The notes: generated by a model not told the origin, from the letters alone. A stretch of DNA of 64,000 bases from Candidatus Dojkabacteria bacterium HGW-Dojkabacteria-1 (GCA_002840365.1 PHAO01000001.1:85101-149100), one strand, 5' to 3'. Shown: positions 29,975 to 62,997, counted from the stretch's first letter. A program made the numbers and translations.

Positions 29975-30362
29975 GGGGATTTTCACAATTGGGGTTGTAC
30001 TTACTGTCCTTATGATTTTTGTAGGAGTTTTTGTATTTAAGGCATCAGGATCTAATGATTCTGTTTCCGTGGAGGGATGTAATCCTTACAATGTAGAGAT
30101 TAAGAAAGGAGAGAAAGAAAATTCTGTAGAGATAACATGGAAGAGTAAGACAAGATGTTCTGCATATATTCTTTATGGTACAGAAATGAAGAATTTAAAT
30201 CTTGTTGCAATAGATTTGGAGGGGGATTTTAGAGGAAAGAATCACAAGGTTGTTATTAACTCCTTATTGTCTTCTAAAACATATTTCTTCTCTATTGTTT
30301 CTGGTGGTACTACGTATGGTAAGGATGGTTTACCAATATCATTCTCTATTTCTTCCCTCTGA
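29964..30362 (+). CDS. Small exported protein with an FN3 / purple-acid-phosphatase-N-like module
   Basis: VEITWKSKTRCSAYILYGTE…KTYFFSIVSGGTTYG. This module is paralogous to two modules in the 50608..52224 protein. Confidence 0.45.
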   Translation: MKNRGIFTIGVVLTVLMIFVGVFVFKASGSNDSVSVEGCNPYNVEIKKGEKENSVEITWKSKTRCSAYILYGTEMKNLNLVAIDLEGDFRGKNHKVVINSLLSSKTYFFSIVSGGTTYGKDGLPISFSISSL

Positions 30363-32079
30363 TAACTTTTTGTTCGAAATATTTCTTTGGATTTGTTATC
30401 TTGTATTTTGTTAATTCTGCATCTTTGTATACATCGGAATCTAGAATCATTTTTGAAAGTTTTGTTCCTTCTGGTCTTGTATATACCGCCCATGCTGTTG
30501 CGAAGAGCAGTATTCCTATTGCTATCCTTACGAAGACATTATCCAAAATACCTGTACTTGGAGTAGTTGTTGGAGTTGTAGGAATATTGTTACAGTCCTG
30601 TGCAACGATGATTGTTGTTTCTGCTCTTAGACTTGCAGGATCTTCAGGTATTTGGACAGGGTTAACTATTACTTCGTTAAGATTTTCTCCAGTTAGAGCT
30701 GTACTATTTGCTTTAGCTTTGAATACTACAACTAATTGTCCACCTGTTGGAACATTCCATGGATTATTCGATTGTTGCCATACGATTTCTTGGGTAGACC
30801 CTACGGTAGTAACTGTAACAACAGAGCTGTCATTTACAGCAGAACCATTTATTGTAGAACTACCAGCGATATATTCAAATCCTAATGGCAATTTATCTTT
30901 AATAGAGGTAATACCTTCTTCTTGTTGAGCATTGTTTCTTACTGATATGGTAAAGGTAGCTTCATTCTTGCTATCAACTCTTTCAACACATGATGGAGCT
31001 CCAGTCTTGGAAGCGGAGAAATTAGATTTTTCCTCTTGCTGTGCAGGAGGTTGTTCAACTATTGGTGCTTGTATTTCAGGGAAGTTTACTTCTGTTTTTA
31101 CGACTCCAATACTTACATCATCAACAAATACTTCTGCAGTAATTTCCAAATCACCTGTATGATTATCAAGTATGCTAAATGATTGACCACCAGCAAAGTT
31201 ACTATTGTCATACAAATTAGCTTTTGTTAAAGTAATCGTTCCTTTTGCAGATTCAACATTAAAACCATCTTGTGCAATTATTGTTGCAAACCTTGTACCG
31301 AAAGAGAAACTTACCTTAACATTCTCACTAGCTATTTGTCCTACTGTGATAATGACTTGAGATATTTTTGTTCTTCCATCGCTTTGTCTTTCAGTGGAGG
31401 CTACCAAAGAGTTGGCACCAACTCCTCCCTCTCTTTCTATTTCAACGACTCTTCTACAGATAATGGAGTTTATAGAGTCTCCTCTACTGTCTGTTGCGGT
31501 AGCAAGTATTTCTAATGAGTCACCACTGCCAAAGTCTGTTATCTTTTTAAATATCTTTGTTCCCTCTGTTCTATCTGGTTGTTCTGATTGGGTATTTACT
31601 CTAAATGTATAGTCTTTGTAACTGTCTCTATCAAATTCTGCTTCAACATTTACTTCGTCATCAGGATTAATTTTCCCGGTTATTAACTTTCCATCTTGGT
31701 CAGTAAGAATCATACTTTGGCATCTTGCATCAGAGATACTTCTTACATTACAGCTCTTGTATCTTTCAACTGCTGTAGAGCTTTTTAATACATATTCAGA
31801 AAGTAAATCAGTATTACATGTAACATTACATGCTTGATCGGAAGAAACAGTTTTCGTATCGAAAAGGATAGCTTTTTTCGGATCTCCACAATCATTAACA
31901 ACAGCAGGGTCGATTATATAGCATCCACAGGTAATTTGATCACTTCTTTCATCTTGGCGAATTGTATCCCCGAGCATATAAAAATATATGACTGCCCCTA
32001 TTAAAGCTACTATTAATATTGCACCAACGAAAACTAAGGCTTTAAGGGCTCTTTTTGTATTTCTCCTTTGTGTGCTCAT
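30346..32079 (-). CDS. Large cell-surface protein with N- and C-terminal hydrophobic anchors
   Basis: N-terminal TM, about 480 aa of beta-rich/Cys-containing ectodomain, Thr/Pro-rich stalk (TTPTTTPSTG), then a C-terminal hydrophobic segment. Confidence 0.45.
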   Translation of the reverse strand: MSTQRRNTKRALKALVFVGAILIVALIGAVIYFYMLGDTIRQDERSDQITCGCYIIDPAVVNDCGDPKKAILFDTKTVSSDQACNVTCNTDLLSEYVLKSSTAVERYKSCNVRSISDARCQSMILTDQDGKLITGKINPDDEVNVEAEFDRDSYKDYTFRVNTQSEQPDRTEGTKIFKKITDFGSGDSLEILATATDSRGDSINSIICRRVVEIEREGGVGANSLVASTERQSDGRTKISQVIITVGQIASENVKVSFSFGTRFATIIAQDGFNVESAKGTITLTKANLYDNSNFAGGQSFSILDNHTGDLEITAEVFVDDVSIGVVKTEVNFPEIQAPIVEQPPAQQEEKSNFSASKTGAPSCVERVDSKNEATFTISVRNNAQQEEGITSIKDKLPLGFEYIAGSSTINGSAVNDSSVVTVTTVGSTQEIVWQQSNNPWNVPTGGQLVVVFKAKANSTALTGENLNEVIVNPVQIPEDPASLRAETTIIVAQDCNNIPTTPTTTPSTGILDNVFVRIAIGILLFATAWAVYTRPEGTKLSKMILDSDVYKDAELTKYKITNPKKYFEQKVIRGKK

Positions 32080-37742: not shown

Positions 37743-39599
37743 TTACAATATTGGCTCAGGAGGGGTATTGTTCTTCTCGGGTTCGTTCTGAGCATCATCT
37801 ATTTGCTCTAAAACCATTGAGAGATCACTCTCTGGTTCTGGAATAGGGGGAGTATCTAAAATCGGTTCTGGGGCAACAAAATTTTCTGTTACTAATTCTT
37901 CTACTTGCTTTTGCTGAGTATATATTGGAGCTTCTACCTTATTATCATCTCTTGGTATTGTTGGTGGGAGTGTAGGATTAATATCTTTTTTATCTTCTGA
38001 ATCATCCTTCCATACCGCAAAGATTATCATCGGGGTAAATATTGCAAGTATTATCAATGCAATTCCACCACCTATTATCATTGCAACTCTTTTGTTTATG
38101 TAATATCCAAAGATATTAAAACTATCAGGATCTCCATCTTCACCAGAAATGGTAAATGTCCAATCTTTTAATACTTCTTTTTCGGAGCTATCTTTAAAGG
38201 TTATTTCTACCTTGTGTACACCCTTACTTAAACCTTCTTCTGGAAGGAAAAGTACAGTATATTCCGAATCAGAAATCTTGTTTATTTTTATATCCTTTGT
38301 AATATCTTTGTTATCAAGTTTTACTAAAATGCTCTCTTGGATTATGGTTTCACCTATTGATGCTATGAGTGATGCTTTGATTGTAGGTCTATTATTAGAT
38401 ACATTATCTGTACTTGTAGGTGAGAAGTTTATTACCTGTGGGTCTTCCAATGCTACTAAGTCATCTGGTTCTTTACCTTCTGTTTGTCCTTTGGAAATTA
38501 CAATCTCTTCCGAGACATCCATACCTATTGCTGGAGGATTCTGATTGTCTATTGCCCTAAGTATTATTCTGTATGTTCCATCTTTGAGTTCTGTTGTATT
38601 AATATCTTGGGTTGTTGCATTGTATGGAATATTTCTGTTTATTGTTATCCAACTCTTTTCATTTGTTGGATTAGAAGAAACATACATTTCATATCTAGTG
38701 ATATGGTTTAAATCTTTAGAATCCCATGTTACTTTAAGGCTGTCTTGTTCTTTAATTACAATTGGTTCTGATGGATCTATGATTTTAATATTTGGAATAT
38801 CATTTTCTTTAGGGCTTACACTAATGACCCATGATTGTGATGCAAGGTGTCTACTATATCCATCATGAATGAAGATATTTGCTAAGTAGCTTGCTGGTTG
38901 GTCAGTGCTTCCTCTAAACTTTATTGTTAATCTTCCATTACCACCATCTTCAATTATCGTAGGTTTTAACCAAAGATTGCCAGGAGTAAACGAAAAGGAG
39001 TAGTTGATTGTATCTTTATCAATATCTTCTGCTGTCAATGTATATTCATATACATCACCCGTCTTTATACTTTGAGATGGTTTTGAGTTTTTTGGAGTTG
39101 AGAGAAATACAGGTTTTGAGTTGTTAGTTACTGCTCTTACTCCTTCAACATCAAATGTACTACTAATTACACATTCGTATGATTTTTGGTTTAAGTCCAA
39201 CATTATCCCCTTTATCTCGTAAGCTTTTGCTACAGTTGGGGTAAAAGAGAAAGATTCTGATATTCTTTGAGGGTTTCCTTCGTATGTTTTTGAAAAGAGG
39301 TCGTTGTTATTTTCATCCTTTATTGAAACTGCCTTTACTCCAAGTGAGGTTGTCATAGCATCTACTTGTACTCTGAATGTACTATTTATTTCCAAAGAAT
39401 ATGGATTAACATTAGGGAATGTAATTACACATGGGTTCTTTTCGCTTACCTCGATATCATCAAATGCTCTATTTCTGATATCAAAGCTTTCATCTTGCAA
39501 AAGCCCTATTACAAAGACAGGGATGGAGAGAAGAAGAAGAAAGGTGAGGAACAGACTCCTTCCTTTTCTACTTTTTCTTGGGGCAATTCTACTTCTCAT
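37743..39599 (-). CDS. Large cell-surface protein with He_PIG/Ig-like and FN3-like repeats
   Basis: N-terminal signal/TM. …VYEYTLTAEDIDKDTINYSFSFTPGNLWLKP… fits He_PIG. C-terminal TM followed by a Pro-rich cytoplasmic tail. Confidence 0.5.
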   Translation of the reverse strand: MRSRIAPRKSRKGRSLFLTFLLLLSIPVFVIGLLQDESFDIRNRAFDDIEVSEKNPCVITFPNVNPYSLEINSTFRVQVDAMTTSLGVKAVSIKDENNNDLFSKTYEGNPQRISESFSFTPTVAKAYEIKGIMLDLNQKSYECVISSTFDVEGVRAVTNNSKPVFLSTPKNSKPSQSIKTGDVYEYTLTAEDIDKDTINYSFSFTPGNLWLKPTIIEDGGNGRLTIKFRGSTDQPASYLANIFIHDGYSRHLASQSWVISVSPKENDIPNIKIIDPSEPIVIKEQDSLKVTWDSKDLNHITRYEMYVSSNPTNEKSWITINRNIPYNATTQDINTTELKDGTYRIILRAIDNQNPPAIGMDVSEEIVISKGQTEGKEPDDLVALEDPQVINFSPTSTDNVSNNRPTIKASLIASIGETIIQESILVKLDNKDITKDIKINKISDSEYTVLFLPEEGLSKGVHKVEITFKDSSEKEVLKDWTFTISGEDGDPDSFNIFGYYINKRVAMIIGGGIALIILAIFTPMIIFAVWKDDSEDKKDINPTLPPTIPRDDNKVEAPIYTQQKQVEELVTENFVAPEPILDTPPIPEPESDLSMVLEQIDDAQNEPEKNNTPPEPIL

Positions 39600-40979: not shown

Positions 40980-41774
40980 TTAATACCTTTCTGCTACTAC
41001 AACTAATCTTTTTGTTCCTACTCCCAGTGGCCAGCAGGTCATCATTGTTAAGGTTTCTTTGTCCCCTTGGGTTTTTAAGATAGAGAAATCATCAGCAGAG
41101 ACTATTTTTTTGTTTCTAACAACATACTGAATTTCCTCTGTACCTTTCTTTACTCTTACGTTGTCTCCAATATCAACACTTTCTAATCTTGTGAAGATAG
41201 TTTCTGGAAGGTTTGAATGCCTATTAAAGAAACTCAAAACTGCACTATGTCCATATACAAAGGAATTTCCGCCATCTCCAGGAAGAGGGGTTCCTTTGAA
41301 ATGTGCTAAGCCATATTTCAGATATTGGTTATATATCTTCTCATCAGAGCTTTCTACATTAGGAGTTATCCTTATCCCTTGTATATCTACAGAATCAATA
41401 TCCATGTACATATTCTCACGATATTCTTTGTTGACAATAATGGGTTTGTTAGATTTGGTTCTAGGATCATATGTAAATACTCCTTGATATTGTAAATTTT
41501 CTGCAGAACTAAACAGATTCTCAAAATAGCTTTTACCTGGATCATAGTATGCAAATTCATCTGCAATATACTGCTTGTACGATTCGGGAAAGGGATCTTT
41601 CATAAGTCTTTGTTTTAATTCTTCAAATTCACCTTGGATATATGATTTACTAAGAGGGAAGACTTGGCTAGTAATTACAATGATTCCAAAAATTGCTAAT
41701 ACCCATGCTAATGTTTGTTTTATTCTCTTTATCTTTCTCTCATCTTGAACGGAGATTTTCATATTGTTATCCAT
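40980..41774 (-). CDS. Sortase-family transpeptidase
   Basis: N-terminal TM; FVYGHSA (His); LTMMTCWP (TLxTC Cys motif); KRLVVV (Arg). Confidence 0.65.
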
Positions 41775-50140: not shown

Positions 50141-50245
50141 TTATACCACTTAAAATATTAAAAAGTTCCCTTTTACTATATAAACTTGACATATTATCTA
50201 AAAAATAATTAGATGTAAGTATATAAAGTTTGAAGATATGTATAT

Positions 50246-50566
50246 ATGGAAACGATTCCACCAATATATTGGATGGTGATAATAGGGGTATTAGTTGGAT
50301 TCATATGTTTTGTTTTGTACCAAGTAGCAATGCTTCTTAAAGAATCTAAGCATGCGGTTACAGATTCAAGAAAAATACTTCAAGAAGCTGTTAAGACTGT
50401 TGATATGGCAAATGCCCTATTAGCTGATGCAACAGAGATTGTAAGTACAGCCAAAAGTACTGTGAATGAAGTAAATAACGCGATAATAGGCCCTATTAGA
50501 AGAATATCTTCTCTTCTTTCTGTAGTATCTGGTTTTGCTGAGGGGTTAACCTCTAAAAGAAAGTAA
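50246..50566 (+). CDS. DUF948-like small membrane protein
   Basis: N-terminal TM plus a coiled-coil with alanine/threonine periodicity; 106 aa. Confidence 0.45.
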   Translation: METIPPIYWMVIIGVLVGFICFVLYQVAMLLKESKHAVTDSRKILQEAVKTVDMANALLADATEIVSTAKSTVNEVNNAIIGPIRRISSLLSVVSGFAEGLTSKRK

Positions 50567-50607: not shown

Positions 50608-52224
50608 ATGTATTTAACCCCGTATCAAAAAAGACAAATAAAAATTGTAGCTGCTTTAGTAATTGGTATTCCATTAACGATTTTTGCTGTGTACCAAGGG
50701 GTTCGATACCTTTCACGTGCTGGTGCAGAGGCAGTACCTAAAGATGTTGTAGTTACAAATCTAACAACAAATTCTCTAACAGTAACATGGTTTACAGATA
50801 CACCTGCTGATGGATATGTTGTACCTGTATTAAATGGAGTAGAACAAAGTCCTGTTAGAGATAAAAGGGGAGGGGGTAACAGAACATCTCACTATGTTGA
50901 ACTGCGTAGTTTAGAACCTAATACAAAATATTCCTTTGTAATTGTTTCTGGAGGTACAAAGTATACAAACAGTGGTGGTAATAACTATGAATTTACAACG
51001 GCTCCAGTTGGGGCAGATACCCCTATTCCCAATCCAATTCATGGCTCTGTAACAGGAATATCTAATGATGATGTGATAATATATGTTTTCCCTAAAAACA
51101 ATAGTGCATATCCAGTATCAACCACTATTCCAAGTGGTGGAAACTGGATCGTAGATCTTTCTTCCTTTAGAAAAATAAGTGACAAGAGTATGTTAAGAAT
51201 TACTGATGATACAGAACTTGTTCTTCTTGCAAAAAATACCACTGGTAAAGGAGCGCTTTTAGAAGGGGCATATTCATCACTTTTTGATAGTAATGGGAAA
51301 TTAAATCAAACACTATCCTTAAGAATAGAGGATATTTCTGATTTAATATCTTTCTTTCCAAATGAATCTAAAATGGGAGCAACGCAAGCAAGTACTCCTA
51401 CGCCTTCTCCTTCTCCAACGCCTACACCCACTCCTACTCCAACACCTGAACCAGATGATGAGGATATAGATATTGATACCAATTATCAAATTGTGCATGA
51501 TTTGAGATGGATAGATATGGTTACTGGTGATGCACAAGCTTCTTTAGATTCAGGAGAGTCTACTATCTTGATTACAAATCTTACAGATGTAGGTTTTACA
51601 GTAATTTGGAGATCTCCACAAAAAGTAGAGGGATATATTAAATATGGTACTAGTAAAACTGCTCTTACAGAGGAATCATGGGATGTAAGAGATGGTCTCT
51701 CATCTAGAAACACTTACTATGCTCATGCGGTTGATACAGCAAGACTAGATCCAAATACAACATACTACTTTGAAGTCTATTCAGGAGAAACTAAATACAA
51801 CAATTCAGGAAATATGTACTCTGTTACAACATTCTCTACCCTTGGTTCTCCACCACCATTTGAAACTAAATCTGGATCTATATCTAATGCAACGAATCCA
51901 GGAGATTGGATATTGGTAGGTAAGATTGTTGATGACGATGATGCAGGAACATCTGGTTCATCAAGATATCTTTCAACAGTTCCTGATGACAATGGGAATT
52001 GGATATTAACTTTGGGAGACGCAAGAAGTGAAGATGGTTCTTCATATTTCTCCTTCTCTAACTCAGATATTTTAAGCATATATTTGCTTGGAGATAGTAA
52101 GAAACTTTTTGACAACAAAATTTCTCTTTCAGAGATACCAATAGACGCATCTTTGGTTGGAGGTGGGGTCTCTGTAAGTAAGGTTAAATTGCTTTCTGAC
52201 TATGGAATCGTTAATATAAAGTAG
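50608..52224 (+). CDS. Secreted protein with two FN3/PAP-N-like modules and a (TP)n linker
   Basis: N-terminal TM. Modules …LTVTWFTDT…TKYSFVIVSGGTKY… and …FTVIWRSPQ…TTYYFEVYSGETKY… TPTPSPSPTPTPTPTPTPEP linker. Confidence 0.5.
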   Translation: MYLTPYQKRQIKIVAALVIGIPLTIFAVYQGVRYLSRAGAEAVPKDVVVTNLTTNSLTVTWFTDTPADGYVVPVLNGVEQSPVRDKRGGGNRTSHYVELRSLEPNTKYSFVIVSGGTKYTNSGGNNYEFTTAPVGADTPIPNPIHGSVTGISNDDVIIYVFPKNNSAYPVSTTIPSGGNWIVDLSSFRKISDKSMLRITDDTELVLLAKNTTGKGALLEGAYSSLFDSNGKLNQTLSLRIEDISDLISFFPNESKMGATQASTPTPSPSPTPTPTPTPTPEPDDEDIDIDTNYQIVHDLRWIDMVTGDAQASLDSGESTILITNLTDVGFTVIWRSPQKVEGYIKYGTSKTALTEESWDVRDGLSSRNTYYAHAVDTARLDPNTTYYFEVYSGETKYNNSGNMYSVTTFSTLGSPPPFETKSGSISNATNPGDWILVGKIVDDDDAGTSGSSRYLSTVPDDNGNWILTLGDARSEDGSSYFSFSNSDILSIYLLGDSKKLFDNKISLSEIPIDASLVGGGVSVSKVKLLSDYGIVNIK

Positions 52225-52273: not shown

Positions 52274-53605
52274 ATGAGAATGTATCTAGACAAATTAAAA
52301 CCAATATTTTTACTCTTTGTAATGACAGTTTCGTCATTAGGTATAGTTTTTGTCGTAAATCAATTTAAGGATACTTCTAAGTATGTAAAACCTGTTGAGG
52401 GGGCTTTGGAAGTTAAGATTGTCGAGAACAGTACAGCATTAGTAAATAACAGTGATACCACTATTCCACAGAAAGTATCAGAGGATAATCAGGGAATAGT
52501 TTTGAGTACAGAGGCAACAAATTCATGTGCACAAGCGATTATTAAAATACAGTCATATTCTGTATGTTCTAGATCTGGTACAGCAGAAGAGGATTACAAA
52601 ACAGGAAATAGGTCGGGTAATACTGTGAGTAAAAATTCCACAGTAAAGCTTATTGAAGTTACTATACCTTTAGAACTTTTTGCAGGTTCTGATGTAAAAG
52701 ATTCTAATCGTAAACTAACTGATACTACGCCTATTAATCTCTCTGCAGGTAATATGTTTGATGATAAAATTGCAAACGGTCAATTACCTCCTGGGGTTCA
52801 AATCTCTGAATATAAGCCTTCTGTAAAAAATAGGCCTTTTTCTATGCCATATTCTACTGCTTTTGAACAAAAAGCAAACATTAATAGTGAAGAGGGAGAG
52901 GTTGTTCAGGATAAAAAATTGGGAGGATATAAATGTGAACATTGTAAAAATGAATCAAATGTTACTCCTCATAGAACGAATCAGTTGAGTACTTTCATGG
53001 TAGATATCTTGTATAGGACGCCTGGTGAAAAGAATCAGGTAAAAGCTGAAGATGCAATTGAATCATGTTCTGATAAAGATGATTTTATTGAATGGAATAA
53101 CAATAATAGGAAATCATGTGCATTAAGCACAGTTACTGTAGCAGTAGAATTAATAAAATCCATACCAGAATCTATTTGGAGTGAATGTAAAGGAGGGGTT
53201 AAATATGATCAAAATGGAAACCCTATCCCTCCTAGTGAAGATTGTATTTTTCCTGAAGACATAATAATAAAAATGACCTCTGGGTTTGGTTCTGATAGGG
53301 AGTGTCCTGATGGAGTTTGTACTAATAAGTATATGAATACAAGAAATAATGTTGCACTAGCTCCTATAGATGCTAATAAGACAAATAAGCAATATTTTAC
53401 GACTGCATGTAAGGTAATCATTGAAGGTAAGGTATATACTGTAAAGTGTGCTTGGGATATGTCTCATCTTTATAAAGAAAGGAAATTTTCTGAGTACGAT
53501 GATTTGCCAGGTGTAGAGAGTACACCTACAAAAGACCAATATACTAGATATCTGTTAGAAGAAGGAGATCGTAGAAAAGATGCTCCTGAGATAAAAATCT
53601 TTTAG
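52274..53605 (+). CDS. Cys-rich secreted hypothetical protein
   Basis: N-terminal TM/signal; at least 14 Cys in the ectodomain; no known domain. Confidence 0.45.
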   Translation: MRMYLDKLKPIFLLFVMTVSSLGIVFVVNQFKDTSKYVKPVEGALEVKIVENSTALVNNSDTTIPQKVSEDNQGIVLSTEATNSCAQAIIKIQSYSVCSRSGTAEEDYKTGNRSGNTVSKNSTVKLIEVTIPLELFAGSDVKDSNRKLTDTTPINLSAGNMFDDKIANGQLPPGVQISEYKPSVKNRPFSMPYSTAFEQKANINSEEGEVVQDKKLGGYKCEHCKNESNVTPHRTNQLSTFMVDILYRTPGEKNQVKAEDAIESCSDKDDFIEWNNNNRKSCALSTVTVAVELIKSIPESIWSECKGGVKYDQNGNPIPPSEDCIFPEDIIIKMTSGFGSDRECPDGVCTNKYMNTRNNVALAPIDANKTNKQYFTTACKVIIEGKVYTVKCAWDMSHLYKERKFSEYDDLPGVESTPTKDQYTRYLLEEGDRRKDAPEIKIF

Positions 53606-53627: not shown

Positions 53628-55109
53628 ATGAGTATTACGCTCCAAGTATATGAAAAGATTTTGATATTGAAGGAATTTGTTACTAGAAAAACATTCCAAA
53701 ATGCATTTCTAGGATTTCTTTCTTTGCTTCTTTTCTTCGGTGTAATGAATGTATATGCACAAGAAGATGCAAAAATATCTCCCGATTGGGGTGGTACAAA
53801 AGAGTTTCATAATGAGATAAGTGGAACGAATAGAGACGAGGATAATATGAATAGTAGGCAAGGTTTAGAAGTACTCAATACGAGCTGGACAGTATTATCC
53901 TTAATGGCTCCAGAGGTAACTGAAAATGGTGAACAAGCTATGAGTAATCCTAATGTTCCATATGATTTAAGAAGGGGAGCTTTAGGTATGTTAGAAGATG
54001 CAGGGAATCTTGTAGTGGCCTCATATCCCGTTGTAGATATCCCACAACATTTAGCACAAGAATGGGTTCCTGGATACAGAGAGAATGTTACAGGTTTGTA
54101 TGCCCAGAACTCTTCTGCAGGACATAATTCTGGATATCAAGAATTAATGAGTAGTGGAATAGTTAGCCTTTGGAATAGAACTCTAAATCTTTCATATGTA
54201 GCTTTTGTTTTAATAATGATTGTTGCAGGATTTATGATTATGTTCAGACATAAGCTAGGAGGTCAAACTATGGTTACCATAGGTAATGTTCTTCCTGGTG
54301 TAATTACGGCATTAATATTAGCAACCTTTAGTTTTGCAATTGCAGGTTTAATCATTGATTTAGGTGGAGTTGCTACAGGTCTTGTAGCCTTCATTCTAGG
54401 AGATGGAGCTGAAATAAAATCAATCTCTTCCCTCGGAGGATTAATGGCTACAGTTCTTAGTGGTGGAGTCGGTATGGCAACAGTTATTAGTGCAGTTGGA
54501 GGAGGTTTGTTGCTAGGAGGTGCCGCTATCGGTGCTGGTGGACTTGCTGCTATTGCATCTGGTCCTGTTGGATGGTTGATTCTTGGTGCCGTTGGAGCAA
54601 TTGGAATTATATTTGCAATTATAATCATTGGAATAATCTTTGTAGGAGCTCTTAAAGTCATTATCGCTTTGTACAAAGCATATTTCTCTTTACTTTTAGC
54701 AGTGATACTTGGACCAATACAAATAACCTTGGGTGCAATGCCAGGTAATAGTCATATGATTAATAACTGGTTCTTAACGGTATTAAGGAATGTATTGGTA
54801 TTTCCTGTAGTACTATTCATTGTTAATATCCCAAATGCCCTTATGAACTCTGGAAGTGATGTCTTCCTTAGATTCCCAGGGAAATTAGTTTATGAAGACC
54901 CTGCAACATATGATGCATGGGATTTAAATGCTGCAAGTGGAATTTTCATATTCATCCTTAAAATCTTTGTACTCTACTTCGCAGCTCAAGCACCTAAGTT
55001 CCTTGAATCTTGGTTCCCACCAAATACACCTAAGGCAATAGGAGAGGGTATTGGGGCGGCTCAAGCAAGTCTTTCAAAGATTCCTTTGGTAGGTGGATTC
55101 TTTAAGTAA
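53628..55109 (+). CDS. VirB6/TrbL-like polytopic T4SS membrane protein
   Basis: Signal sequence and an approximately 140-aa exported segment, then a Gly-rich multi-TM core (…VGGGLLLGGAAIGAGGLAAIASGPVGWLILGAVGAIGIIFAIIIIG…) typical of the TrbL/VirB6 family. Confidence 0.5.
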   Translation: MSITLQVYEKILILKEFVTRKTFQNAFLGFLSLLLFFGVMNVYAQEDAKISPDWGGTKEFHNEISGTNRDEDNMNSRQGLEVLNTSWTVLSLMAPEVTENGEQAMSNPNVPYDLRRGALGMLEDAGNLVVASYPVVDIPQHLAQEWVPGYRENVTGLYAQNSSAGHNSGYQELMSSGIVSLWNRTLNLSYVAFVLIMIVAGFMIMFRHKLGGQTMVTIGNVLPGVITALILATFSFAIAGLIIDLGGVATGLVAFILGDGAEIKSISSLGGLMATVLSGGVGMATVISAVGGGLLLGGAAIGAGGLAAIASGPVGWLILGAVGAIGIIFAIIIIGIIFVGALKVIIALYKAYFSLLLAVILGPIQITLGAMPGNSHMINNWFLTVLRNVLVFPVVLFIVNIPNALMNSGSDVFLRFPGKLVYEDPATYDAWDLNAASGIFIFILKIFVLYFAAQAPKFLESWFPPNTPKAIGEGIGAAQASLSKIPLVGGFFK

Positions 55110-55127: not shown

Positions 55128-57776
55128 ATGGCAAAGAAACCTAAATCAGACAATTTTGATGCTTTAGGTAGTGTCTATGATTTCCTTTTCACTGAAGCAA
55201 AGAAGAAACCAGAGAAAAGAAGACCTATAAAGCCAACTGAGGTTTCAGGTACCAGTATGATGACCGATGCTGTTTTTGCGGCATTGGAAAAACCTGGTGC
55301 CTTTATTTCAAACACCATTGTAGATGAATTTAACGGGGCTCTAGATTTGGAGCTTGGTGTTGTTCAATTTGATACCACTGGAAAGTTTAAAATTACATCG
55401 AATTCTTTAGTAGAAATTTTAAAAGATCCTCAAAAGGCGGTCGAGAAGTCAATTGCAAAAAACCAAGCAATTAGGAAATCCATGCGAGCTACATATCTCC
55501 GAGAATTTATGAAGGACTTTGTTGCCACAGGATGGGCTAGAAAATATGGAGATATTGAAGCACAAAAAGCAGTGTATGGTTCCAGTATTGCATCAAGACA
55601 AAGACTTCTCTCTGAAGAAAGCTATGCAGTCGCAAAGGCAATTGGTCAATACTCAGGAGGTAATATAGACATGGGTTCATATGGGAAGATGAGCTCTGCA
55701 GAAAATGAATTCCTTCACAAAAGATCTCTAGAACTTGTTCGTAGAAAGATGATTCCTCAAGATAAGTGGGATTCTCTCTCTGAGCAAGAAAAAGCATCCT
55801 TTAGAGAAGCATTCCTTAGAGAAAATTCTTGGAAGAAATTTAAGGATACTGATGTTCCAGATACTTCATTACAACAATTTCTAAATGCAAGATTTGGTAC
55901 CGAAGGAGCTGGTATGTACCAGAGATATATAGATACTACAGACAAAGACGTAGCAAAAAGAAACATCGCTGATCCTAAGAAATATCTACAGCTTGAAACC
56001 GCATATCTTGATGAAAATATCAAAAGCTTAGAAAACATTACAAACCGTAATGAACAACAACAAAGAAATTTAGATGTATATAGAAAGACAAAATATCTTT
56101 TAGACAAAGGAAAGGGAGAGGCAAAATTACGTACGGAGTTAGAAAGAATTAGAACTGACCTTCGAAGTGTAACGGATCCTACTCAGAAAAGATTGCTAGA
56201 AAGAGAGTTAAAGGACACGAGAACAGCACTCAGATATATTTCCGGAGATAACTTGATGGGTAGGATAGGCAAATGGGAGGGGTATGTTAATAGCTGGAAT
56301 ATGATTTATGGTCCAAAGGGTTCTCAGCTATTTCAAAGTGTATTAACAGGGGATTTTTTTGATGCAAAGAAAAATACTATATTTTGTCCGACGAAAGTTA
56401 GTGAAATTGATAACAGGGGTGGAAAAATCGAAATAATGGTTGGAGCAACATCTCCTAGGGGTCTTATTAATGCATATAATCAGATGGGAACTCAACTCTA
56501 CTATATGACCCCAAGATCTGTATTCAGAACTCTTTTCTATAATGGTGAGGGTTTTACATACCTACTCTTTAAGAAGTTAGAAAAAGAGCAAGATCTTCTT
56601 AAAACTCTTGCGACAGGCTTAGGAGAGAAAGATTTCAAAACAGAAAACCTACTAGGGTTACTTATTAATAAAGACATGAATACTTTCCTTACAGATAATG
56701 CTTCAAAGTTTAGCCCTGAAGACTTGGAAAAGATAAAGAAATTTTTTGAATCAAACAAAAACTTTTCATCTGTAATAAAAGTATTTAGTACAGGAAGTAG
56801 AATACAGCAAATAATACAATCAAGAGTTAATGCTATTACTGCACCAATAAGAAGAAAGATTGCAGAAAAATTCCTAATGAAATTTGTATCAAAATATGGA
56901 GGAGCTGAGCTATTGAACCAGTGGATTATGAAAGGTGGTATTAATGTAATGGTTAGATCTTTAGCAACAGGAATCGCGGGAGCTCTTGGATTAGTTGCTA
57001 CTCCACTTGGGAGTGCAATAATAACGGCAATCACATGGGTTTTAACAGATTTAGCAATGAAGGCATTTGCTCAAATGCTAATAGTTGGAAAATATATACT
57101 GTTTGGTTTAATTGGAATTGTTTTCCTAGTAATATTCTGGGCAAGTGGTTCAGTAAAAAGTTTCAATAAAAACAATTTCTCCTACTACAATGAAACCCCT
57201 GGCTCAATAATCCAGTGTTCATTGTACGAAGAAAGAGACCTTGGTACAGGTGATGAAGCTCCTTGGGGAGATACAATAATACCTCCTCCATCTGGAGAAA
57301 GCTGTGTATTTGGAGCAGGATCATTCTGGTGTTCACAGGGGTATAAAGATACAAAAGGTTGGAGTCACCAAAATATTAACCATTTAATGCCAGTAGACTT
57401 AACAAGTGTAGGATATATATATGCTCCACAATTTTGTAGTACTGGAAATTGTAGTATAACGAGAATAGCAGTAATTAACTGTAGAGATGGATCTAATGCA
57501 GGAGGAATAGTTGAATTAACTGCAAGTAATGGTTCTACTACATACCTATTCAAACTTCTACATGTCAAACCACTTGCAGGATTAGGAGAGAAACTTAGTG
57601 GTGGTCAACCAGTTGCTGTTGTACAAGATAGGCCAGAGGTCGAAAGAGGATGGTGTTGGACAGGTAAACACTTACACTTAGAGACAAGACAAAATGGTGC
57701 AACTGTAGATCCACTAAAACTCCTTCAAAGTTTTAGCTGTAATGTACCAGATGAGTCTAGCTGTGCAAGACCATAA
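55128..57776 (+). CDS. Large bipartite protein with a cytoplasmic coiled-coil N-terminal region, a TM hairpin, and a C-terminal Cys-rich M23 metallopeptidase domain
   Basis: M23/LytM motifs NHLMPVD…VGYIYAP…LLHVKP…SGGQPVAVV…TGKHLHLET…TVDP. Hydrophobic segment at about aa 600-670. 882 aa. Confidence 0.6.
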   Translation: MAKKPKSDNFDALGSVYDFLFTEAKKKPEKRRPIKPTEVSGTSMMTDAVFAALEKPGAFISNTIVDEFNGALDLELGVVQFDTTGKFKITSNSLVEILKDPQKAVEKSIAKNQAIRKSMRATYLREFMKDFVATGWARKYGDIEAQKAVYGSSIASRQRLLSEESYAVAKAIGQYSGGNIDMGSYGKMSSAENEFLHKRSLELVRRKMIPQDKWDSLSEQEKASFREAFLRENSWKKFKDTDVPDTSLQQFLNARFGTEGAGMYQRYIDTTDKDVAKRNIADPKKYLQLETAYLDENIKSLENITNRNEQQQRNLDVYRKTKYLLDKGKGEAKLRTELERIRTDLRSVTDPTQKRLLERELKDTRTALRYISGDNLMGRIGKWEGYVNSWNMIYGPKGSQLFQSVLTGDFFDAKKNTIFCPTKVSEIDNRGGKIEIMVGATSPRGLINAYNQMGTQLYYMTPRSVFRTLFYNGEGFTYLLFKKLEKEQDLLKTLATGLGEKDFKTENLLGLLINKDMNTFLTDNASKFSPEDLEKIKKFFESNKNFSSVIKVFSTGSRIQQIIQSRVNAITAPIRRKIAEKFLMKFVSKYGGAELLNQWIMKGGINVMVRSLATGIAGALGLVATPLGSAIITAITWVLTDLAMKAFAQMLIVGKYILFGLIGIVFLVIFWASGSVKSFNKNNFSYYNETPGSIIQCSLYEERDLGTGDEAPWGDTIIPPPSGESCVFGAGSFWCSQGYKDTKGWSHQNINHLMPVDLTSVGYIYAPQFCSTGNCSITRIAVINCRDGSNAGGIVELTASNGSTTYLFKLLHVKPLAGLGEKLSGGQPVAVVQDRPEVERGWCWTGKHLHLETRQNGATVDPLKLLQSFSCNVPDESSCARP

Positions 57777-57799: not shown

Positions 57800-58771
57800 A
57801 TGAAAATACAAGGAAGTAAAAAAACAGCACTAATAGTATTAGGCATTTTTGTTGCAATACTCGTAGTTGTACTAGCTTTTGTTCTCTTCTCAGGAATGAG
57901 GAAAAAATATCCGGAAGATCCTGTAAAAATGAAAAACCTTGGAAGTAGTAATCAACAGGTTGAAATTACATCGCTTGATTTTCAGATAGAGGAGAAGGAT
58001 TTACCACTTTACTCTGTACAACCCAAAATACACATAAACCAGGTAGAACAGATGATAGATAGGATGGGACTATCTTTGCAAAGGAAGGATATCGTAAAAG
58101 ATAGCTATATTGAATGGAGTGATGGTGAAAATACATTTGTGTATGACTCTGTTCTTGATTCTGTCTCTTTTCAACTAAGTAGAAGAATATCTCTTGAAAG
58201 AGGTGGGTCATCCTTTAGTACTGCTTTCAAAAGATATTTTGATTTAGAATATGAGTTTAAACTTGTAAGAGAAAGAAAGAATCTAGATGGGGGTATTACA
58301 TATTACGGCTCGAGACTGCTTGATAATATGCCTATGCAGTATGGTGCAAACTATGAATACACAGATATTCTTAGTTTTAATACAGAGGGAAATTTAGAAT
58401 CAGGCAAATTACTACTAGCAGAGATAGAAAAACATGACTACTATCTACCACTAATAAACAAGAGAGAATTAAATGAATATATAAATACAAGAGGCTATCC
58501 TAAGGAACACTACATAGATACTTCAGTATTAGCGGATATACTTGAATTAGACTATCTTGATGATGAATGGTCTAAAATAGAAAATACATTGGAAGATTGT
58601 AGAGCAAGAACTCTTGAAACTGTATTTCTTTACAAAACATCTAACCAAGGATACCTTTTACCTGTATTCAAAATACTTTCGAATTGTAAGGTTGTTGCTT
58701 CTGGAAGTGAGTATACAGTACCTACAACATTCTATGTTAATGCTGTAGACCCTAGATATGTCTCATTGTAA
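57800..58771 (+). CDS. Bitopic membrane protein, possible VirB8-like scaffold
   Basis: N-terminal TM followed by about 290 aa of extracytoplasmic sequence. The assignment rests on position and topology only. Confidence 0.3.
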   Translation: MKIQGSKKTALIVLGIFVAILVVVLAFVLFSGMRKKYPEDPVKMKNLGSSNQQVEITSLDFQIEEKDLPLYSVQPKIHINQVEQMIDRMGLSLQRKDIVKDSYIEWSDGENTFVYDSVLDSVSFQLSRRISLERGGSSFSTAFKRYFDLEYEFKLVRERKNLDGGITYYGSRLLDNMPMQYGANYEYTDILSFNTEGNLESGKLLLAEIEKHDYYLPLINKRELNEYINTRGYPKEHYIDTSVLADILELDYLDDEWSKIENTLEDCRARTLETVFLYKTSNQGYLLPVFKILSNCKVVASGSEYTVPTTFYVNAVDPRYVSL

Positions 58772-58795: not shown

Positions 58796-59983
58796 ATGAA
58801 AATTTTAAAACTTCTACAGATTACAATTCTTTCAACAGTTGTTCTTTTCCTTTTTTCTTCAACTTCCTATGCAATGGAAATAGTTGGAAGAGACAGTATT
58901 AAACTTGATGATGCCTTGGCAGAAAAAGAAATACTTTTCTCCCAACCTAGAAAAATTTACATAACTCAGGTTCACAGTAACAATAGAAATATTAAGAATG
59001 ATACAAAGGCATGGATTAGATCTATATACTACTACAGTATAACTAGGCTCAAATTGAATGATATCCCATACAACTATCTAATAGACAAAAGTGGAAATGT
59101 ATATGAAGTATCTAAAGGTGGTGTTGGAGCAAACCCTGGATTAGAAGCAGGAGATAACATTGTATTGATTGGTATTCTTGATAACAATACAGCTCTTACT
59201 CCCAGAACAGAATCCTCATTGGTAGAGCTTGTTGAAACTCTTTCATATAGATATGGAATTAAGCAAGATGGTTGGGATTTTGTTAATCTAAAAATAGTTT
59301 CTAATGAAAATGAGAGATCTTACTTAAGAGCAGAGAGTTCAAAAACTTCTACACTTCAATCTGTATCTCAAGCTCTCGCCAAAGTACGTTGGTCAGATAA
59401 AGAGCATTTAGATTACAAGGCAAGTATAGAGAAAGTAGAATACTCTCAGGAAGTAGAAGTAGGGCAAAAGCTTGAAGTAAAGGTAACAATAAAGAATGAA
59501 AATGATTTCCCATGGTTTGGAGATGTAACATATATATATGTTTCAACAAAAGATGCTAAAGAGAGTGCATATGCAATTAATTCTGTTTGGGAAAGTTTTA
59601 GTAGACCAACATATATCAAAGATAGGGTGGTAAAACCTGGTGATACAACAGAAGTAATATTCTCCCTTATGGGAAAGAGTCGCCCAGGTGAATACAAAGA
59701 GGTATTCGTCTTTACAAAAGATGAAACTGGTGTATTTGAAGGTTCCGAATTTGAAGTGGTATTTAAAATAATTGCAGGAGAAAAGAAGCTCGTAGAGGTA
59801 GTTTCTCCTCAGTATGGATTTGTAAACATTAGAGAGTGTAGATGGTTTAGCTGTAAAAAAGTAGAGGTTGCAAATCATGGAGATGTCTTCATCATGAATA
59901 AAAAAGAGGAAGGATGGTATGAAATCATATTTAATGAGAGTGATTTAGGTTGGGTTACCCAGCAGTATATTAGGGAGCTTTAA
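58796..59983 (+). CDS. Secreted Amidase_2/PGRP-like domain protein with a C-terminal SH3b domain
   Basis: Signal peptide; …IYITQVHS…DIPYNYLIDKSGNVYEV…NIVLIGIL… (amidase_2-like); C-terminal …GFVNIRE…VANHGDVFIMNKKEEGWYEI…GWV (SH3b). Confidence 0.4.
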   Translation: MKILKLLQITILSTVVLFLFSSTSYAMEIVGRDSIKLDDALAEKEILFSQPRKIYITQVHSNNRNIKNDTKAWIRSIYYYSITRLKLNDIPYNYLIDKSGNVYEVSKGGVGANPGLEAGDNIVLIGILDNNTALTPRTESSLVELVETLSYRYGIKQDGWDFVNLKIVSNENERSYLRAESSKTSTLQSVSQALAKVRWSDKEHLDYKASIEKVEYSQEVEVGQKLEVKVTIKNENDFPWFGDVTYIYVSTKDAKESAYAINSVWESFSRPTYIKDRVVKPGDTTEVIFSLMGKSRPGEYKEVFVFTKDETGVFEGSEFEVVFKIIAGEKKLVEVVSPQYGFVNIRECRWFSCKKVEVANHGDVFIMNKKEEGWYEIIFNESDLGWVTQQYIREL

Positions 59984-60043: not shown

Positions 60044-62077
60044 TTGAATTTGAATATAATCAAACACGTGGCACCCCAAGACTTGATTCTCGGAAAACTT
60101 AATCCACAGCAAAGAATTGCAGTGGAAACAACAGAGGGACCTTTGCTAGTATTTGCAGGGGCAGGTTCTGGTAAGACAAGAGTTATAACTAACAGAATTG
60201 CTTACCTGATTACAGAAAAGAAGGTCCCTTCCGAGAATATCTTAGCAGTAACTTTTACTAAGAAAGCTGCTGGTGAGATGCAAGAAAGAATTGTTTCCCT
60301 CCTTAAAGAGTTAGGCGTAGATACTAAGAATATTCCATTAGTTGGAACTTTTCATTCAATAGGGGCTCTCTTCTTAAGACAAAATGCTAAAGAAGTTGGA
60401 TTGATGCCTAATTTCTCTATCTTTGATACTGATGATTCAGAGAATTTAATAAAAGACATTATGATTGAACAGGGTTTGGATATTAAACAGATACGACCAA
60501 AAGCCATATCCTTCTTTATATCCTCTGCAAAAAATGAAATGATATCACCCGAAAAATTCCACAATCACTACGGTGGATTTTTAGAAGATATAACTGCGGA
60601 GATATATCCTGTATACCAGAAGCAATTAATAGCTCAAAATTCAGTAGATTTTGGAGACCTTTTGTATCTATCAGTAAAGATGCTTTCTGAAAACAAAAAA
60701 GTATTAGAAAAATATCAAGATATGTACAAATATATTTTGATAGATGAGTATCAAGATACAAACAATGCCCAGTATCTTTTTGCAAAACTACTCTCTGAAA
60801 AGCACAAAAATCTATGTGTAGTAGGTGATGATGACCAGGGTATATATGCATGGAGAGGTGCTGATATAAAAAATATACAATCATTTGAGAAAGATTTTGA
60901 GAATGTAAAGATAGTTAAATTAGAACAAAACTACCGCTCAACAAAAAATGTTATAACTGCCGCTACTGCAGTTATTAGTCAAAACTATTCAAGAGTTGAA
61001 AAAGCCCTATGGACTGATCAAGAGCAGGGAGAGAATATAACTGTATATCAAGCTATGGATCAAGATGATGAGGCACAATATGTGATGGATCAAATAGAGG
61101 TATTAAAAAGATACAAAGTAAGCCTTACAGATGTTGCTGTTCTGTATCGTACAAATTATCAATCAAGAGCAATAGAGGAGGCTCTCTTGAAAAGAGGTTT
61201 GCCTTACAAGCTGGTTGGAGGTTTCCGATTCTATGAAAGGAAAGAGATAAAGGATATCCTTAGTTACCTTCGATTTATTTACAACCTAAAAGATGAATTA
61301 AGTCTAGGAAGAATACTTAATGTTCCAACTAGAAAAGTAGGTCCCAAATCAGTTGCAACACTACATGAGATAGCAAGAAGTTCAAATTGTACGGTTGGAG
61401 AATTGCTAGTAGCATCGTATGAGATAAGTATGGGATTAAACCATATACTAAATATCTCCCCCAAGGCATATTCCTTCATCGAAACAAATATCTCCCTTAT
61501 GTCGAAATACACGAGTTTAGTAAATATTTTTGGTAGCTTGTATGTGGAATCTCAGGGTTTGGATGTACTAAGTATAATTGATTTAGTATTAAGAAAAATT
61601 CACTACGTAGAATGGATGGATGATGGCTCTGAAGCTGCAGAGTACAAGAAAGAGAATATCGAGGAATTGAAAAGTGTCGCAGGAAGTTATGCAAGACAGC
61701 ATGGTAAGAAATCAATAGATGTTTTTCTACAAGAGATAAATTTAATTGAGCAAGAACAAGACAAAAACCAAGATGGTAGTGGTGATTACGTTAACCTAAT
61801 GACACTTCACTCATCCAAGGGTTTAGAATTTAACAATGTATTCATTGTGGGAATGGAGGAAGGAATATTGCCACACTCAAGGTCTTTTACTGATGAGGAT
61901 GGATTAGAAGAAGAAAGAAGACTTTGTTATGTAGGCATTACTAGAGCTAGGGAAAAATTGTTTTTAACATTTGCTGATAAAAGACAAGGAAGAGAAGGGT
62001 ATAATACGCAAATACCATCTAGATTTCTTGGTGAAATACCTCAAGACATTTGTGAATATTACAGTTGGCAGAATTAG
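60044..62077 (+). CDS. uvrD: UvrD/PcrA-family DNA helicase
   Basis: LNPQQRIAVE…LLVFAGAGSGKTRVIT (motif I), VDEYQDTN, YRS…; 677 aa. Confidence 0.9.
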   Translation: MNLNIIKHVAPQDLILGKLNPQQRIAVETTEGPLLVFAGAGSGKTRVITNRIAYLITEKKVPSENILAVTFTKKAAGEMQERIVSLLKELGVDTKNIPLVGTFHSIGALFLRQNAKEVGLMPNFSIFDTDDSENLIKDIMIEQGLDIKQIRPKAISFFISSAKNEMISPEKFHNHYGGFLEDITAEIYPVYQKQLIAQNSVDFGDLLYLSVKMLSENKKVLEKYQDMYKYILIDEYQDTNNAQYLFAKLLSEKHKNLCVVGDDDQGIYAWRGADIKNIQSFEKDFENVKIVKLEQNYRSTKNVITAATAVISQNYSRVEKALWTDQEQGENITVYQAMDQDDEAQYVMDQIEVLKRYKVSLTDVAVLYRTNYQSRAIEEALLKRGLPYKLVGGFRFYERKEIKDILSYLRFIYNLKDELSLGRILNVPTRKVGPKSVATLHEIARSSNCTVGELLVASYEISMGLNHILNISPKAYSFIETNISLMSKYTSLVNIFGSLYVESQGLDVLSIIDLVLRKIHYVEWMDDGSEAAEYKKENIEELKSVAGSYARQHGKKSIDVFLQEINLIEQEQDKNQDGSGDYVNLMTLHSSKGLEFNNVFIVGMEEGILPHSRSFTDEDGLEEERRLCYVGITRAREKLFLTFADKRQGREGYNTQIPSRFLGEIPQDICEYYSWQN

Positions 62078-62997
62078 TTTACCCCGTAAGTTCTATTATA
62101 TTTAGCATGACATGCAGGCCACTGACTTGATCTTGTTGATTCTCCTGCTCTGTATTTTGTAATTGTGTGCCTTATCTGTGCATGACCATCGAAAATATTC
62201 TCCTTAAATTGTCTACTCCACCAATATGGACTCCATTGGAACAAACCTTTGTATGAGCTCTTGTTTGATTCTGCATTACAACCAGATTCACAGTACATTA
62301 TAAATTTGAGCCACCTTTTCTCCTCCTCTGTATATGGCCCTGTATCAACTACCTGGTACCAGTATTCACAGTTGTATCCTTTTGGATCTATACCAGCAAG
62401 GGAGTACATTGATGTTCCAACTTCTAGAATTTTTACAGATGGCTCTCTTACAACTCTTTCAGAAAGAATTTTACTTTCAATTAATACACCATCTTCGTAA
62501 TAGCTGATTACTTTTTGTTTCTTAATTCCTAATACCCCCTCTTGAGATACATACTCCTCACCCTTAAGATATTTATCTGTCTTTATTACCTTCGTAGTAA
62601 ATGGAATATCCTCGTCTATCTCCTCGATAATAGTCTCAGTCTTGATAACCCTTACTAAGCTACCATTGGTGATATATTGAGTACTAATAATAACTCTCTC
62701 TTGATCAGAAAGATTAATTTGGAATTCGTCTAGAATCTTGTAAATATCTGTCTCTACTGTAAATATACTGTAAACATAGTCACCTTTTTTGATATGTACT
62801 AACTTCGGTCTTCTTGAGCTTCTCTCTAGCTGAGTATCAGTTCTAAAGACCATATCCTTTATATTGTACTGTGTATTTACTTCATTTCCCTCTGCTAAAA
62901 CGATATTGTTAGCAGCAAAGATCAATCCGATTGTAATAAGAAGCACTGTTGTAAACAGGGCAGCAAGGTATTTTCTACCTTTGTTTTCGTGTTCCAT
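62074..62997 (-). CDS. Membrane-anchored Rpf-like (resuscitation-promoting-factor-type) transglycosylase
   Basis: N-terminal TM. C-terminal …FIMYCESGCNAESN…YKGLFQWSPYWW… matches the Rpf CESGGNW…GlfQ…W core. Confidence 0.5.
   Translation of the reverse strand: MEHENKGRKYLAALFTTVLLITIGLIFAANNIVLAEGNEVNTQYNIKDMVFRTDTQLERSSRRPKLVHIKKGDYVYSIFTVETDIYKILDEFQINLSDQERVIISTQYITNGSLVRVIKTETIIEEIDEDIPFTTKVIKTDKYLKGEEYVSQEGVLGIKKQKVISYYEDGVLIESKILSERVVREPSVKILEVGTSMYSLAGIDPKGYNCEYWYQVVDTGPYTEEEKRWLKFIMYCESGCNAESNKSSYKGLFQWSPYWWSRQFKENIFDGHAQIRHTITKYRAGESTRSSQWPACHAKYNRTYGVN

Follow-up and report, generated by a model that had tools for sequence, protein, structure and literature searches.

We analysed a 64,000-nucleotide stretch of DNA (the window) from Candidatus Dojkabacteria bacterium HGW-Dojkabacteria-1 (GCA_002840365.1, PHAO01000001.1:85101-149100) and, within it, the gene g5. 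Judging from its sequence and from structural models, the most likely activity of the g5 product is cell-wall cleavage. We tentatively take the protein to be a membrane-tethered, zinc-dependent peptidoglycan endopeptidase that works on the wall of its own cell as part of a complex encoded by the surrounding operon, a reading that we put a little short of an even chance. Dojkabacteria (WS6) form a class without cultured members within the Candidate Phyla Radiation (CPR), with genomes of ~0.7 Mb. The open reading frame (ORF) begins with an ATG that lies 18 nucleotides from the end of the gene before it and encodes a protein of 882 residues, as an earlier note on this DNA had claimed; the product is 100% identical to a database entry of the same bacterium, the hypothetical protein CVU76_00680. 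A search of 5.8 billion proteins returned 38 full-length homologs (the identical entry and 37 others, of 868-934 residues), and an exhaustive profile search with residues 1-690 returned 203 cluster representatives, which have one layout in common. Thus, g5 is a real, conserved gene.

To model the C-terminal part of the protein, as the earlier note had proposed, we used AlphaFold2 on residues 676-882 with 19 homologs. The model had a mean predicted local distance difference test (pLDDT) score of 83, with a core above 90, and it shows residues ~726-870 in an M23/LytM fold. When it was compared with the PDB by Foldseek, the top 14 matches were all M23 enzymes; the Foldseek values were 10.5 for LysTt72, 9.7 for LytM, 9.5 for both lysostaphin and EnvC, 9.2 for the LytM domain of PrgK, and 9.1 for SpoIIQ. 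A profile of the tails searched against all PDB sequences matched only M23 proteins, LysTt72 (8s3m) being the best match.

The M23 family is defined by an H(x)nD motif, in which n may vary, an HxH motif, and a histidine ~30 residues upstream of the latter (PMC9662197). Most M23B members have Hx3D, and the second histidine of HxH is a zinc ligand while the first is catalytic. As read from the alignments, the catalytic set of g5 is complete, with H747, D757, and H850 as putative zinc ligands and H812 and H848 as putative catalytic residues. These five residues, together with E852 and eight cysteines, were invariant in 19 aligned M23-type tails, and inspection of the full alignment found the same residues in all 30 M23-type homologs. 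The HLHLE motif and H812, which lies 36 residues ahead of H848, align to the HxH and the upstream catalytic histidine of the M23 structures 8s3m and 9gy1, and the HxH also aligns to that of 3tuf. H812 is the counterpart of LytM H260; for its catalytic role we follow the M23 review (PMC9662197). The β-sheet-core fold, the HxH motif, and the upstream histidine of M23 peptidases are thus all found in g5.

The earlier note had described the M23 motifs as intact. This stands for the second motif, since HLHLE and the VDP that follows are present and HLHLE aligns to the M23 HxH. It does not stand for the first motif, which had been read as H-x-x-x-x-D in NHLMPVD: its histidine, H752 (codon 57381-57383), is not conserved, and the invariant histidine is H747, five residues upstream. 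In the H(x)nD motif, n is 9 in g5 and 6 in the homologs P0029 and P0033, and it ranges over 4-12 in the wider family, where HxH is kept within the last 90 residues in 93 of the 95 tails having H(x)nD. In hhalign comparisons, the WSH...VD of g5 was aligned to fSH...aiD of the homolog P0159, the aiD of which coincides with the first positions of the Pfam M23 profile. Because the link between D757 and the aspartate of the profile runs only through P0159, we regard the H(x)nD motif of g5 as probable rather than proven.

A Pfam M23 (PF01551) match that stays below threshold and the unusual spacing of the first motif would both suit a noncatalytic adaptor of the LytM type (the kind represented by EnvC, NlpD, and SpoIIQ), which binds or activates another hydrolase or forms a channel ring. 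The PF01551 alignment was confined to profile positions 24-96 and did not cover the first zinc-ligand motif, and a precomputed PF01551 assignment was present in 5 of the 38 homologs. However, the M23-type tails have all five zinc-binding and catalytic residues without exception, whereas degenerate LytM domains lack them (PMC9662197), HxH is kept almost throughout the wider family, and the CHAP, C39-like, and VanY tails that replace or accompany the M23 domain in relatives (see below) are enzyme domains. Because the catalytic set is complete, we consider an inactive adaptor very unlikely.

The ectodomain (residues 697-879) contains 9 cysteines in 186 residues, 8 of them invariant, which are scattered through and around the M23 fold. 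They do not make up a separate domain of about 100 residues with at least 10 cysteines ahead of it, as had been claimed. The eight invariant cysteines would form four disulfides, so that the catalytic domain of g5 appears as a new, putatively disulfide-rich member of a well-known family.

The protein has no N-terminal signal peptide, as the earlier note had stated, and residues ~604-674 form its sole hydrophobic block in hydropathy plots. Within this block, two short hydrophobic helices (611-620 and 628-640) flank a conserved Gly/Pro turn and are followed by an amphipathic linker (641-655) and by residues 656-674, the most hydrophobic segment and the probable membrane-spanning helix. In the AlphaFold2 model, a helix spans residues 605-619, is broken at the conserved Gly/Pro turn, and is followed by a long helix spanning residues 626-673. 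The transmembrane (TM) hairpin proposed earlier does not describe these three hydrophobic stretches; it was also at odds with the topology proposed alongside it, because a plain two-helix hairpin puts both protein ends on one side of the membrane, and the N-terminal region and the M23 domain would share that side. The claim that the hydrolase lies outside has fared better. In 149 family members, the tails had a median of 4.33 cysteines per 100 residues, as compared to a median of 0.00 and a mean of 0.04 per 100 residues in the N-terminal regions; together with the peptidase nature of the alternative tails, this makes it very probable that the tail is outside the membrane. We infer an N-in/C-out topology from the lack of a signal peptide, from the cysteine-rich tail, and from the alternative tails, which, as far as they could be identified, are all hydrolases of wall peptides.

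Family members that share the conserved juxtamembrane segment and the Pro-rich linker (residues 675-725, of low pLDDT in the model) differ in their catalytic tails. Besides the M23-like type (~91 members), we found a CHAP domain in P0045 and P0072, a Peptidase_C39_2 domain in P0145, and M23 together with VanY (M15) in P0159; all the alternative tails to which an identity could be given are peptidoglycan peptidase domains. M23, NlpC/P60-like, and M15 enzymes are the redundant cross-link-cleaving ‘space makers’ of E. coli (MepM, MepS/MepH, and MepK, respectively). A space-making tethered endopeptidase fits the family, because its exchangeable classes are M23, NlpC/P60-like CHAP, and M15 VanY. 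A further 37 members end in a Cys-rich domain with the signature HExxHQxQ...EWGADY. This tail occupies the C-terminal 200 residues of, for example, P0030-P0032 and P0034-P0038 (in the locus L002, about positions 12170-12784) and has the invariant residues HELxHQxQ ... EWGADxxSxNxGxYxF, which include a zincin-like HExxH signature. It had no Pfam, PDB-sequence, or phage match and, as far as its sequence tells, may be an undescribed wall-peptidase domain.

The mechanism that these data suggest is the following. The Cys-free, 600-residue helical region would lie in the cytoplasm, a short hydrophobic hairpin would sit at or in the inner leaflet (or make two short spans), and residues 656-674 would form the single full span. 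A linker of ~50 residues would then hold the enzyme on the outer face of the membrane, where it would cleave the peptide cross-links of the cell's own wall near the membrane. This cleavage would make room for wall growth or open a passage through the wall for the envelope complex encoded by the operon. The position and activity of the enzyme would be set by the cytoplasmic region and by the product of the preceding gene, g4, as a polytopic partner; we infer the coupling of g5 to g4 from gene order only.

g5 is the fifth of seven + strand genes (g1-g7, Table 1) separated by intergenic gaps of 18-49 nucleotides, and every product of this operon has a membrane anchor or a signal sequence. The operon is flanked upstream by genes for DnaJ, NusA, IF2, S15, PNPase, RsmB, and RsmE, and downstream by a gene for UvrD/PcrA, followed by one for a G5-domain protein. 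A pattern of the g5 N-terminal motif retrieved 48 genome loci, and in ~45 related loci (all those with enough flank) the order of g1-g7 between rsmE and uvrD was identical, down to 23-28% identity. The loci belong almost all to Dojkabacteria/WS6 or to bins loosely labeled Saccharibacteria, a few bins having other labels. This strict synteny indicates that the operon belongs to the core genome of one CPR class and is inherited vertically, and that it is not a mobile element. The idea that g5 belongs to a multiprotein apparatus thus holds in part, in that it is a member of a conserved multiprotein envelope gene set. The window also encodes MurJ, which indicates that the organism makes peptidoglycan.

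Table 1. Coordinates in the window of g5 and its parts, of the other operon genes, and of the distant secretion-like locus
Feature	Coordinates	Strand	Description
g5, whole gene	55128..57776	+	882 residues and stop codon; from the ORF list and the identical database entry
Basic amphipathic N-terminal motif	55128..55247	+	residues 1-40, MAKKPKSxNxDALGSIFDFLFxEAKKPPDKRKPIKPTG
Helical, Cys-free, hypervariable, exchangeable middle module	55485..56927	+	residues ~120-600; from the AlphaFold2 model and identity comparisons
Most conserved island of the N-terminal region	56478..56555	+	residues 451-476, N..G...YYxTPRSxFRTxFYNGEGF
Hydrophobic block	56937..57149	+	residues 604-674; from hydropathy, AlphaFold2 helices, and statistics over 38 homologs
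Juxtamembrane segment and Pro-rich linker	57150..57302	+	residues 675-725, KFNKxxYSYxxxxPGxVxxC..YEE
Divergent Cys-rich M23/LytM peptidase domain (predicted)	57303..57737	+	residues 726-870
Probable H(x)nD zinc-ligand motif, n = 9	57366..57398	+	H747 codon 57366-57368, D757 codon 57396-57398; H752 lies within this stretch
Putative catalytic histidine H812	57561..57563	+	invariant; aligned to the corresponding histidine of 8s3m and 9gy1
HxH motif, H848-L-H850-L-E852	57669..57683	+	invariant; aligned to HLHxE of solved M23 enzymes
g1	50246..50566	+	106 residues; N-terminal TM helix, helical tail; position conserved in related loci
g2	50608..52224	+	538 residues; N-terminal anchor, two fn3-like/purple-acid-phosphatase-N-like domains, Pro/Thr linker (Pfam, synteny)
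g3	52274..53605	+	443 residues; N-terminal anchor, 12-Cys ectodomain, no known family
g4	53628..55109	+	493 residues; polytopic membrane protein, 140-residue ectodomain, Gly-rich TM segments
g6	57800..58771	+	323 residues; N-terminal anchor, poorly conserved ectodomain, no known family
g7	58796..59983	+	395 residues; signal peptide, PGRP/Amidase_2-like domain, middle domain, bacterial SH3 domain
Minimal locus resembling a type IV secretion system (T4SS)	20399..24262	-	genes for a VirB4-like ATPase, a 220-residue protein, and a PrgI/VirB3-like protein
VirB4-like ATPase gene	20399..22777	-	792 residues; TraG P-loop 4.5e-29, AAA_10, TraC_F_IV
Unassigned 220-residue gene of the T4SS-like locus	22764..23426	-	
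PrgI/VirB3-like gene	23426..24262	-	PF12666, 5.4e-5

Among the other operon products, the g7 profile matched PGRPs and SH3b domains when searched against PDB sequences. No histidine is invariant among 7 g7 orthologs, and g7 is therefore probably a peptidoglycan-binding protein, not an amidase; its terminal SH3 domain has two invariant cysteines. g3 and g6 had no PDB-sequence match. g3 is the second most divergent gene of the operon, with 79% identity to its counterpart in the locus of a close relative (L011), the proteins encoded by the other flanking genes being 83-95% identical. In most relatives, an extra gene at the front encodes a protein of 900-1130 residues with purple-acid-phosphatase-N/fn3-like domains (L002, L004, L006, L028, and L050, about positions 1800-5300); in the window genome it is absent between rsmE and g1 (50141..50245). 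The G5-domain protein gene (62074..62997, - strand), directly downstream of uvrD, keeps its position in related loci. Another cell-wall-related gene of the window, which encodes a sortase (40980..41774, - strand), lies 9 kb upstream of the operon. A scan of the operon for promoters and terminators was uninformative, promoter-like sites being fewer than in shuffled sequences. No Rfam family reached its gathering score anywhere in the 64-kb window. Two other window ORFs, of 577 residues (30346..32079, - strand) and 618 residues (37743..39599, - strand), had no Pfam match at E ≤ 1e-5.

In the earlier note, the position of g5 next to a VirB6-like gene was taken to fit an apparatus-anchored enzyme. 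The neighbor in question is g4, and a T4SS framing was not borne out. No Pfam domain was present in 326 g4 orthologs, and the g4 of the window likewise had no Pfam match. Sub-threshold matches to TrbL/VirB6 came from 1 of 8 and from 5 of 98 g4 orthologs (best E = 6e-5), and no other Pfam family recurred among them; 93 of the 98 gave no TrbL match. Comparison of g4 by hhalign with PrgH of pCF10 and with VirB6 of A. tumefaciens showed no similarity (probabilities of 0.3 and 0.1), and comparison of g5 with PrgK of pCF10 gave a probability of 0.3, with no similarity beyond the common fold. These comparisons thus revealed no direct homology to the three proteins. The g5 product had no SLT or CHAP match in Pfam; its gene does not lie in a VirB4-containing cluster, and the protein, as judged by Pfam and by the comparison with PrgK, is not homologous to a known T4SS hydrolase.

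The window does contain a minimal T4SS-like locus (Table 1), which is located 31 kb from the operon on the opposite strand, between genes for RecF and an AAA+ protein, and beside which there is no polytopic, VirB6-like, or hydrolase gene. According to a preprint, T4SS genes are widespread in Patescibacteria, including Dojkabacteria, and VirB1-like hydrolases often do not adjoin virB4 (10.1101/2025.01.22.634366). A split T4SS is conceivable because of this lone VirB4/PrgI locus and of the dispersed hydrolases reported in the preprint: g5 would be its wall-opening, VirB1-like hydrolase, g4 a VirB6-type channel protein, and VirB4 the ATPase to which g5 docks by its cytoplasmic region. The TraG P-loop match of the ATPase, the PrgI-like gene next to it, the absence of a hydrolase gene alongside it, and the recurrence of TrbL/VirB6 among g4 orthologs are in line with such a system. 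On the other hand, VirB4 and PrgI were absent within 10 kb of the operon in the ~45 loci, the TrbL matches were weak throughout, the hhalign comparisons of g4 and g5 were negative, and none of the five other operon proteins matched a T4SS family. We therefore consider a split T4SS rather unlikely. A mobile T4SS island was rejected in view of the strict synteny.

The N-terminal 600 residues resemble nothing that we searched for. No Pfam, NCBIfam, or PHROG family and no PDB sequence matched the region in profile searches, and tblastn against plasmids gave no match. The AlphaFold2 model of residues 1-690 was of moderate quality (pLDDT 66.6; predicted template modeling score 0.36), and when it was compared with the PDB by Foldseek it had no significant neighbor (best E = 0.19). 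In this model, residues 1-600 are 73% helical, the longest helices counting 40, 36, and 34 residues, with two small β-hairpins. A region rich in coiled coil, as claimed previously, is not what we found, inasmuch as a crude home-made heptad scan, which is not a validated predictor, gave nothing above shuffled controls. The search for tape-measure relatives that the earlier note had called for likewise returned none, either in PHROG or among plasmids, and the ‘large scaffold’ turned out to be the fastest-evolving part of the operon. Two parts of the region stand out by their conservation. In residues 1-40, G14, D18, F19, F21, and K26 are invariant, and this segment may be a partner-binding or membrane-binding peptide. 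In the island at residues 451-476, of which YYxTPRSxFRTxFYNGEGF takes up residues 458-476, Y459, T461, P462, N472, G473, E474, and F476 are invariant across the 38 homologs.

Comparison with the close relative L011 revealed a mosaic structure. Identity was 98% over residues 1-40 and 90-100% over residues 681-882, as compared to 18-45% in most 40-residue blocks of residues 121-600, with 65% at the island (441-480). Among the 38 homologs, 13 pairs had tails at least 88% identical and middle regions at most 55% identical, and the nearest neighbor by middle region often differed from the nearest neighbor by tail. For instance, P0004 goes with P0006 for the middle region (83%) and with P0014 for the tail (97%), the middle regions of P0004 and P0014 being 35% identical. 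In L047 and L048, the middle regions are identical and the tails 88% identical. These discordant patterns of identity indicate that the middle module and the tail module have separate histories, and both modules, as judged by these identities, are far ahead of the other parts of the operon in their rate of evolution or recombination.

Such a pattern would suit a weapon or feeding tool directed against another cell, with the operon encoding a contact apparatus of an epibiont in which the tail is matched to the chemistry of the host wall and the hypervariable middle region is shaped by an arms race. In the extreme form of this explanation, the whole protein would be exported and its hairpin would insert into the host membrane, as in phage ejection/tape-measure proteins. 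Besides the cassette-like exchange of tails among close relatives and the hypervariable middle region, the long, nearly Cys-free helical region is consistent with it; many proteins that are exported unfolded are nearly Cys-free. The same holds for the fn3-rich surface proteins of the operon, for the layout of a helical region followed by hydrophobic segments and M23, which from general knowledge resembles that of pb2 of phage T5, and for the weak similarity that tblastn detected between the tail and YomI of SPbeta, a hydrolase associated with the tape measure (E = 3e-3). However, the protein has no recognizable secretion signal or processing site, the enzyme is tethered ~50 residues from the membrane anchor, the whole protein had no PHROG match and its N-terminal region no plasmid match, the operon occupies a constant place among housekeeping genes, away from any phage genes, and Dojkabacteria have no known host. 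A host-directed tool is unlikely in our view. Also unlikely, to much the same degree, is a hitherto undescribed surface apparatus specific to Dojkabacteria in which g5 would be a polymorphic hydrolase with two independently exchanged modules, namely the helical one, exposed or exported, and a wall-cutting tail (M23, CHAP, C39-like, VanY, or a novel HExxH domain), acting at the interface with a host cell. In that case, g5 would at the molecular level be a determinant of the host range of an uncultured lineage of episymbionts. A tape-measure or prophage identity was rejected in view of the fixed housekeeping context and of the absence of any phage signal; no operon protein matched PHROG above noise. 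To readings other than the own-wall endopeptidase, the split T4SS, the host-directed tool, and the inactive adaptor, we give a low probability.

Several observations weigh against an endopeptidase acting on the cell's own wall. With respect to the enzyme, the PF01551 match reaches 21.3 bits, short of the gathering score (28.7), and the spacing of the first zinc-ligand motif is unusual (H-x9-D). With respect to topology, the positive-inside rule cannot decide, since the net charge over the 38 homologs is +3.1 before the hydrophobic block, +1.05 in the 641-655 linker, and +1.3 after the block, and a strict two-span reading would place the enzyme in the cytoplasm. No family, fold match, or nucleotide-binding motif ties the cytoplasmic region to a regulator, and its mean cysteine content of 0.04% is unusual when compared with 0.73% in the cytoplasmic proteins of the window. 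Finally, a middle region that is 18-45% identical although the flanking genes are 83-95% identical makes a mosaic that is unexpected for a housekeeping autolysin, and the tail types of L038 (CHAP-like) and L045 (HExxH) differ though their g4 and g7 are 86-87% identical. Exchange of modules in this manner is seen more typically where a protein confronts a partner or an enemy outside the cell. The mosaic hypervariability and the avoidance of cysteine are not explained by a role in the cell's own wall, and they leave room for a role at a cell interface.

To our knowledge, almost nothing is known about how Dojkabacteria build their envelope or interact with other cells. The present analysis defines a lineage-wide envelope operon of seven to eight genes without annotated function and gives one of its products a predicted biochemical activity. 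We found no literature or family model for the fusion to a 600-residue region, for the Dojkabacteria operon, or for the two-module cassette behavior, and these three features appear to be undescribed. The family adds to M23 a variant with putative disulfides and a long H(x)nD spacer, and it brings in an uncharacterized, wall-associated HExxH domain. g5 is also a hotspot for the exchange of modules, and hotspots of this kind are usually a sign of selection for conflict or specificity. An enzyme that remodels the wall of its own cell would probably be essential for growth and would give access to the cell biology of CPR bacteria; one that acts on a partner cell could serve as a marker of host range.

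Among characterized enzymes, the M23B peptidases LytM and lysostaphin of Staphylococcus and the phage endopeptidase LysTt72 (PDB 8s3m) share with g5 the HxH motif and the upstream catalytic histidine, and LysTt72, the best match in sequence-profile searches, also has cysteines near the core strands. Their identity to g5 is only 19-22%, however, and their first motif is HxxxD, as compared to H-x9-D in g5. They also lack the eight invariant cysteines and the inserted Cys loop (residues 767-785) of g5, as well as the membrane anchor and the 600-residue N-terminal region that precede its catalytic domain.

PrgK of the Enterococcus plasmid pCF10, a T4SS wall hydrolase that contains LytM, SLT, and CHAP domains, is similar in length to g5 (871 and 882 residues), and both genes are found downstream of a gene for a polytopic membrane protein (in pCF10, the VirB6-like PrgH), although in pCF10 prgI and prgJ lie between prgH and prgK. 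In contrast with g5, PrgK is anchored at its N-terminus, with all its domains outside the membrane, and its plasmid-borne gene adjoins prgJ, which encodes VirB4; the g5 operon is chromosomal and encodes no ATPase. No sequence relationship between the two proteins was detectable, as indicated by the hhalign result given above.

Phage T5 pb2 and SPbeta YomI/CwlP have their parts in the same order as g5 (a long helical region, hydrophobic segments, and a zinc peptidase), with the weak tail match to YomI mentioned above. Unlike these tape-measure proteins, g5 showed no long uninterrupted helix and no heptad signal in the unvalidated scan, had no PHROG match, and occupies a fixed housekeeping locus away from phage genes.

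Membrane proteins are coupled to wall hydrolases in several known systems, namely FtsEX with PcsB, CwlO, RipC, or EnvC, ActH with LytH, and SpdC with SagB. We found no homology between these systems and g5, the operon of which lacks an ATPase gene, and they also differ in that the g5 hydrolase itself bears a large, presumably cytoplasmic region. Nevertheless, they combine a polytopic membrane protein with a hydrolase on the outer face, the logic that we propose for g4 and g5, and in them, as in the g5 family, the type of catalytic domain varies while the control module is constant.

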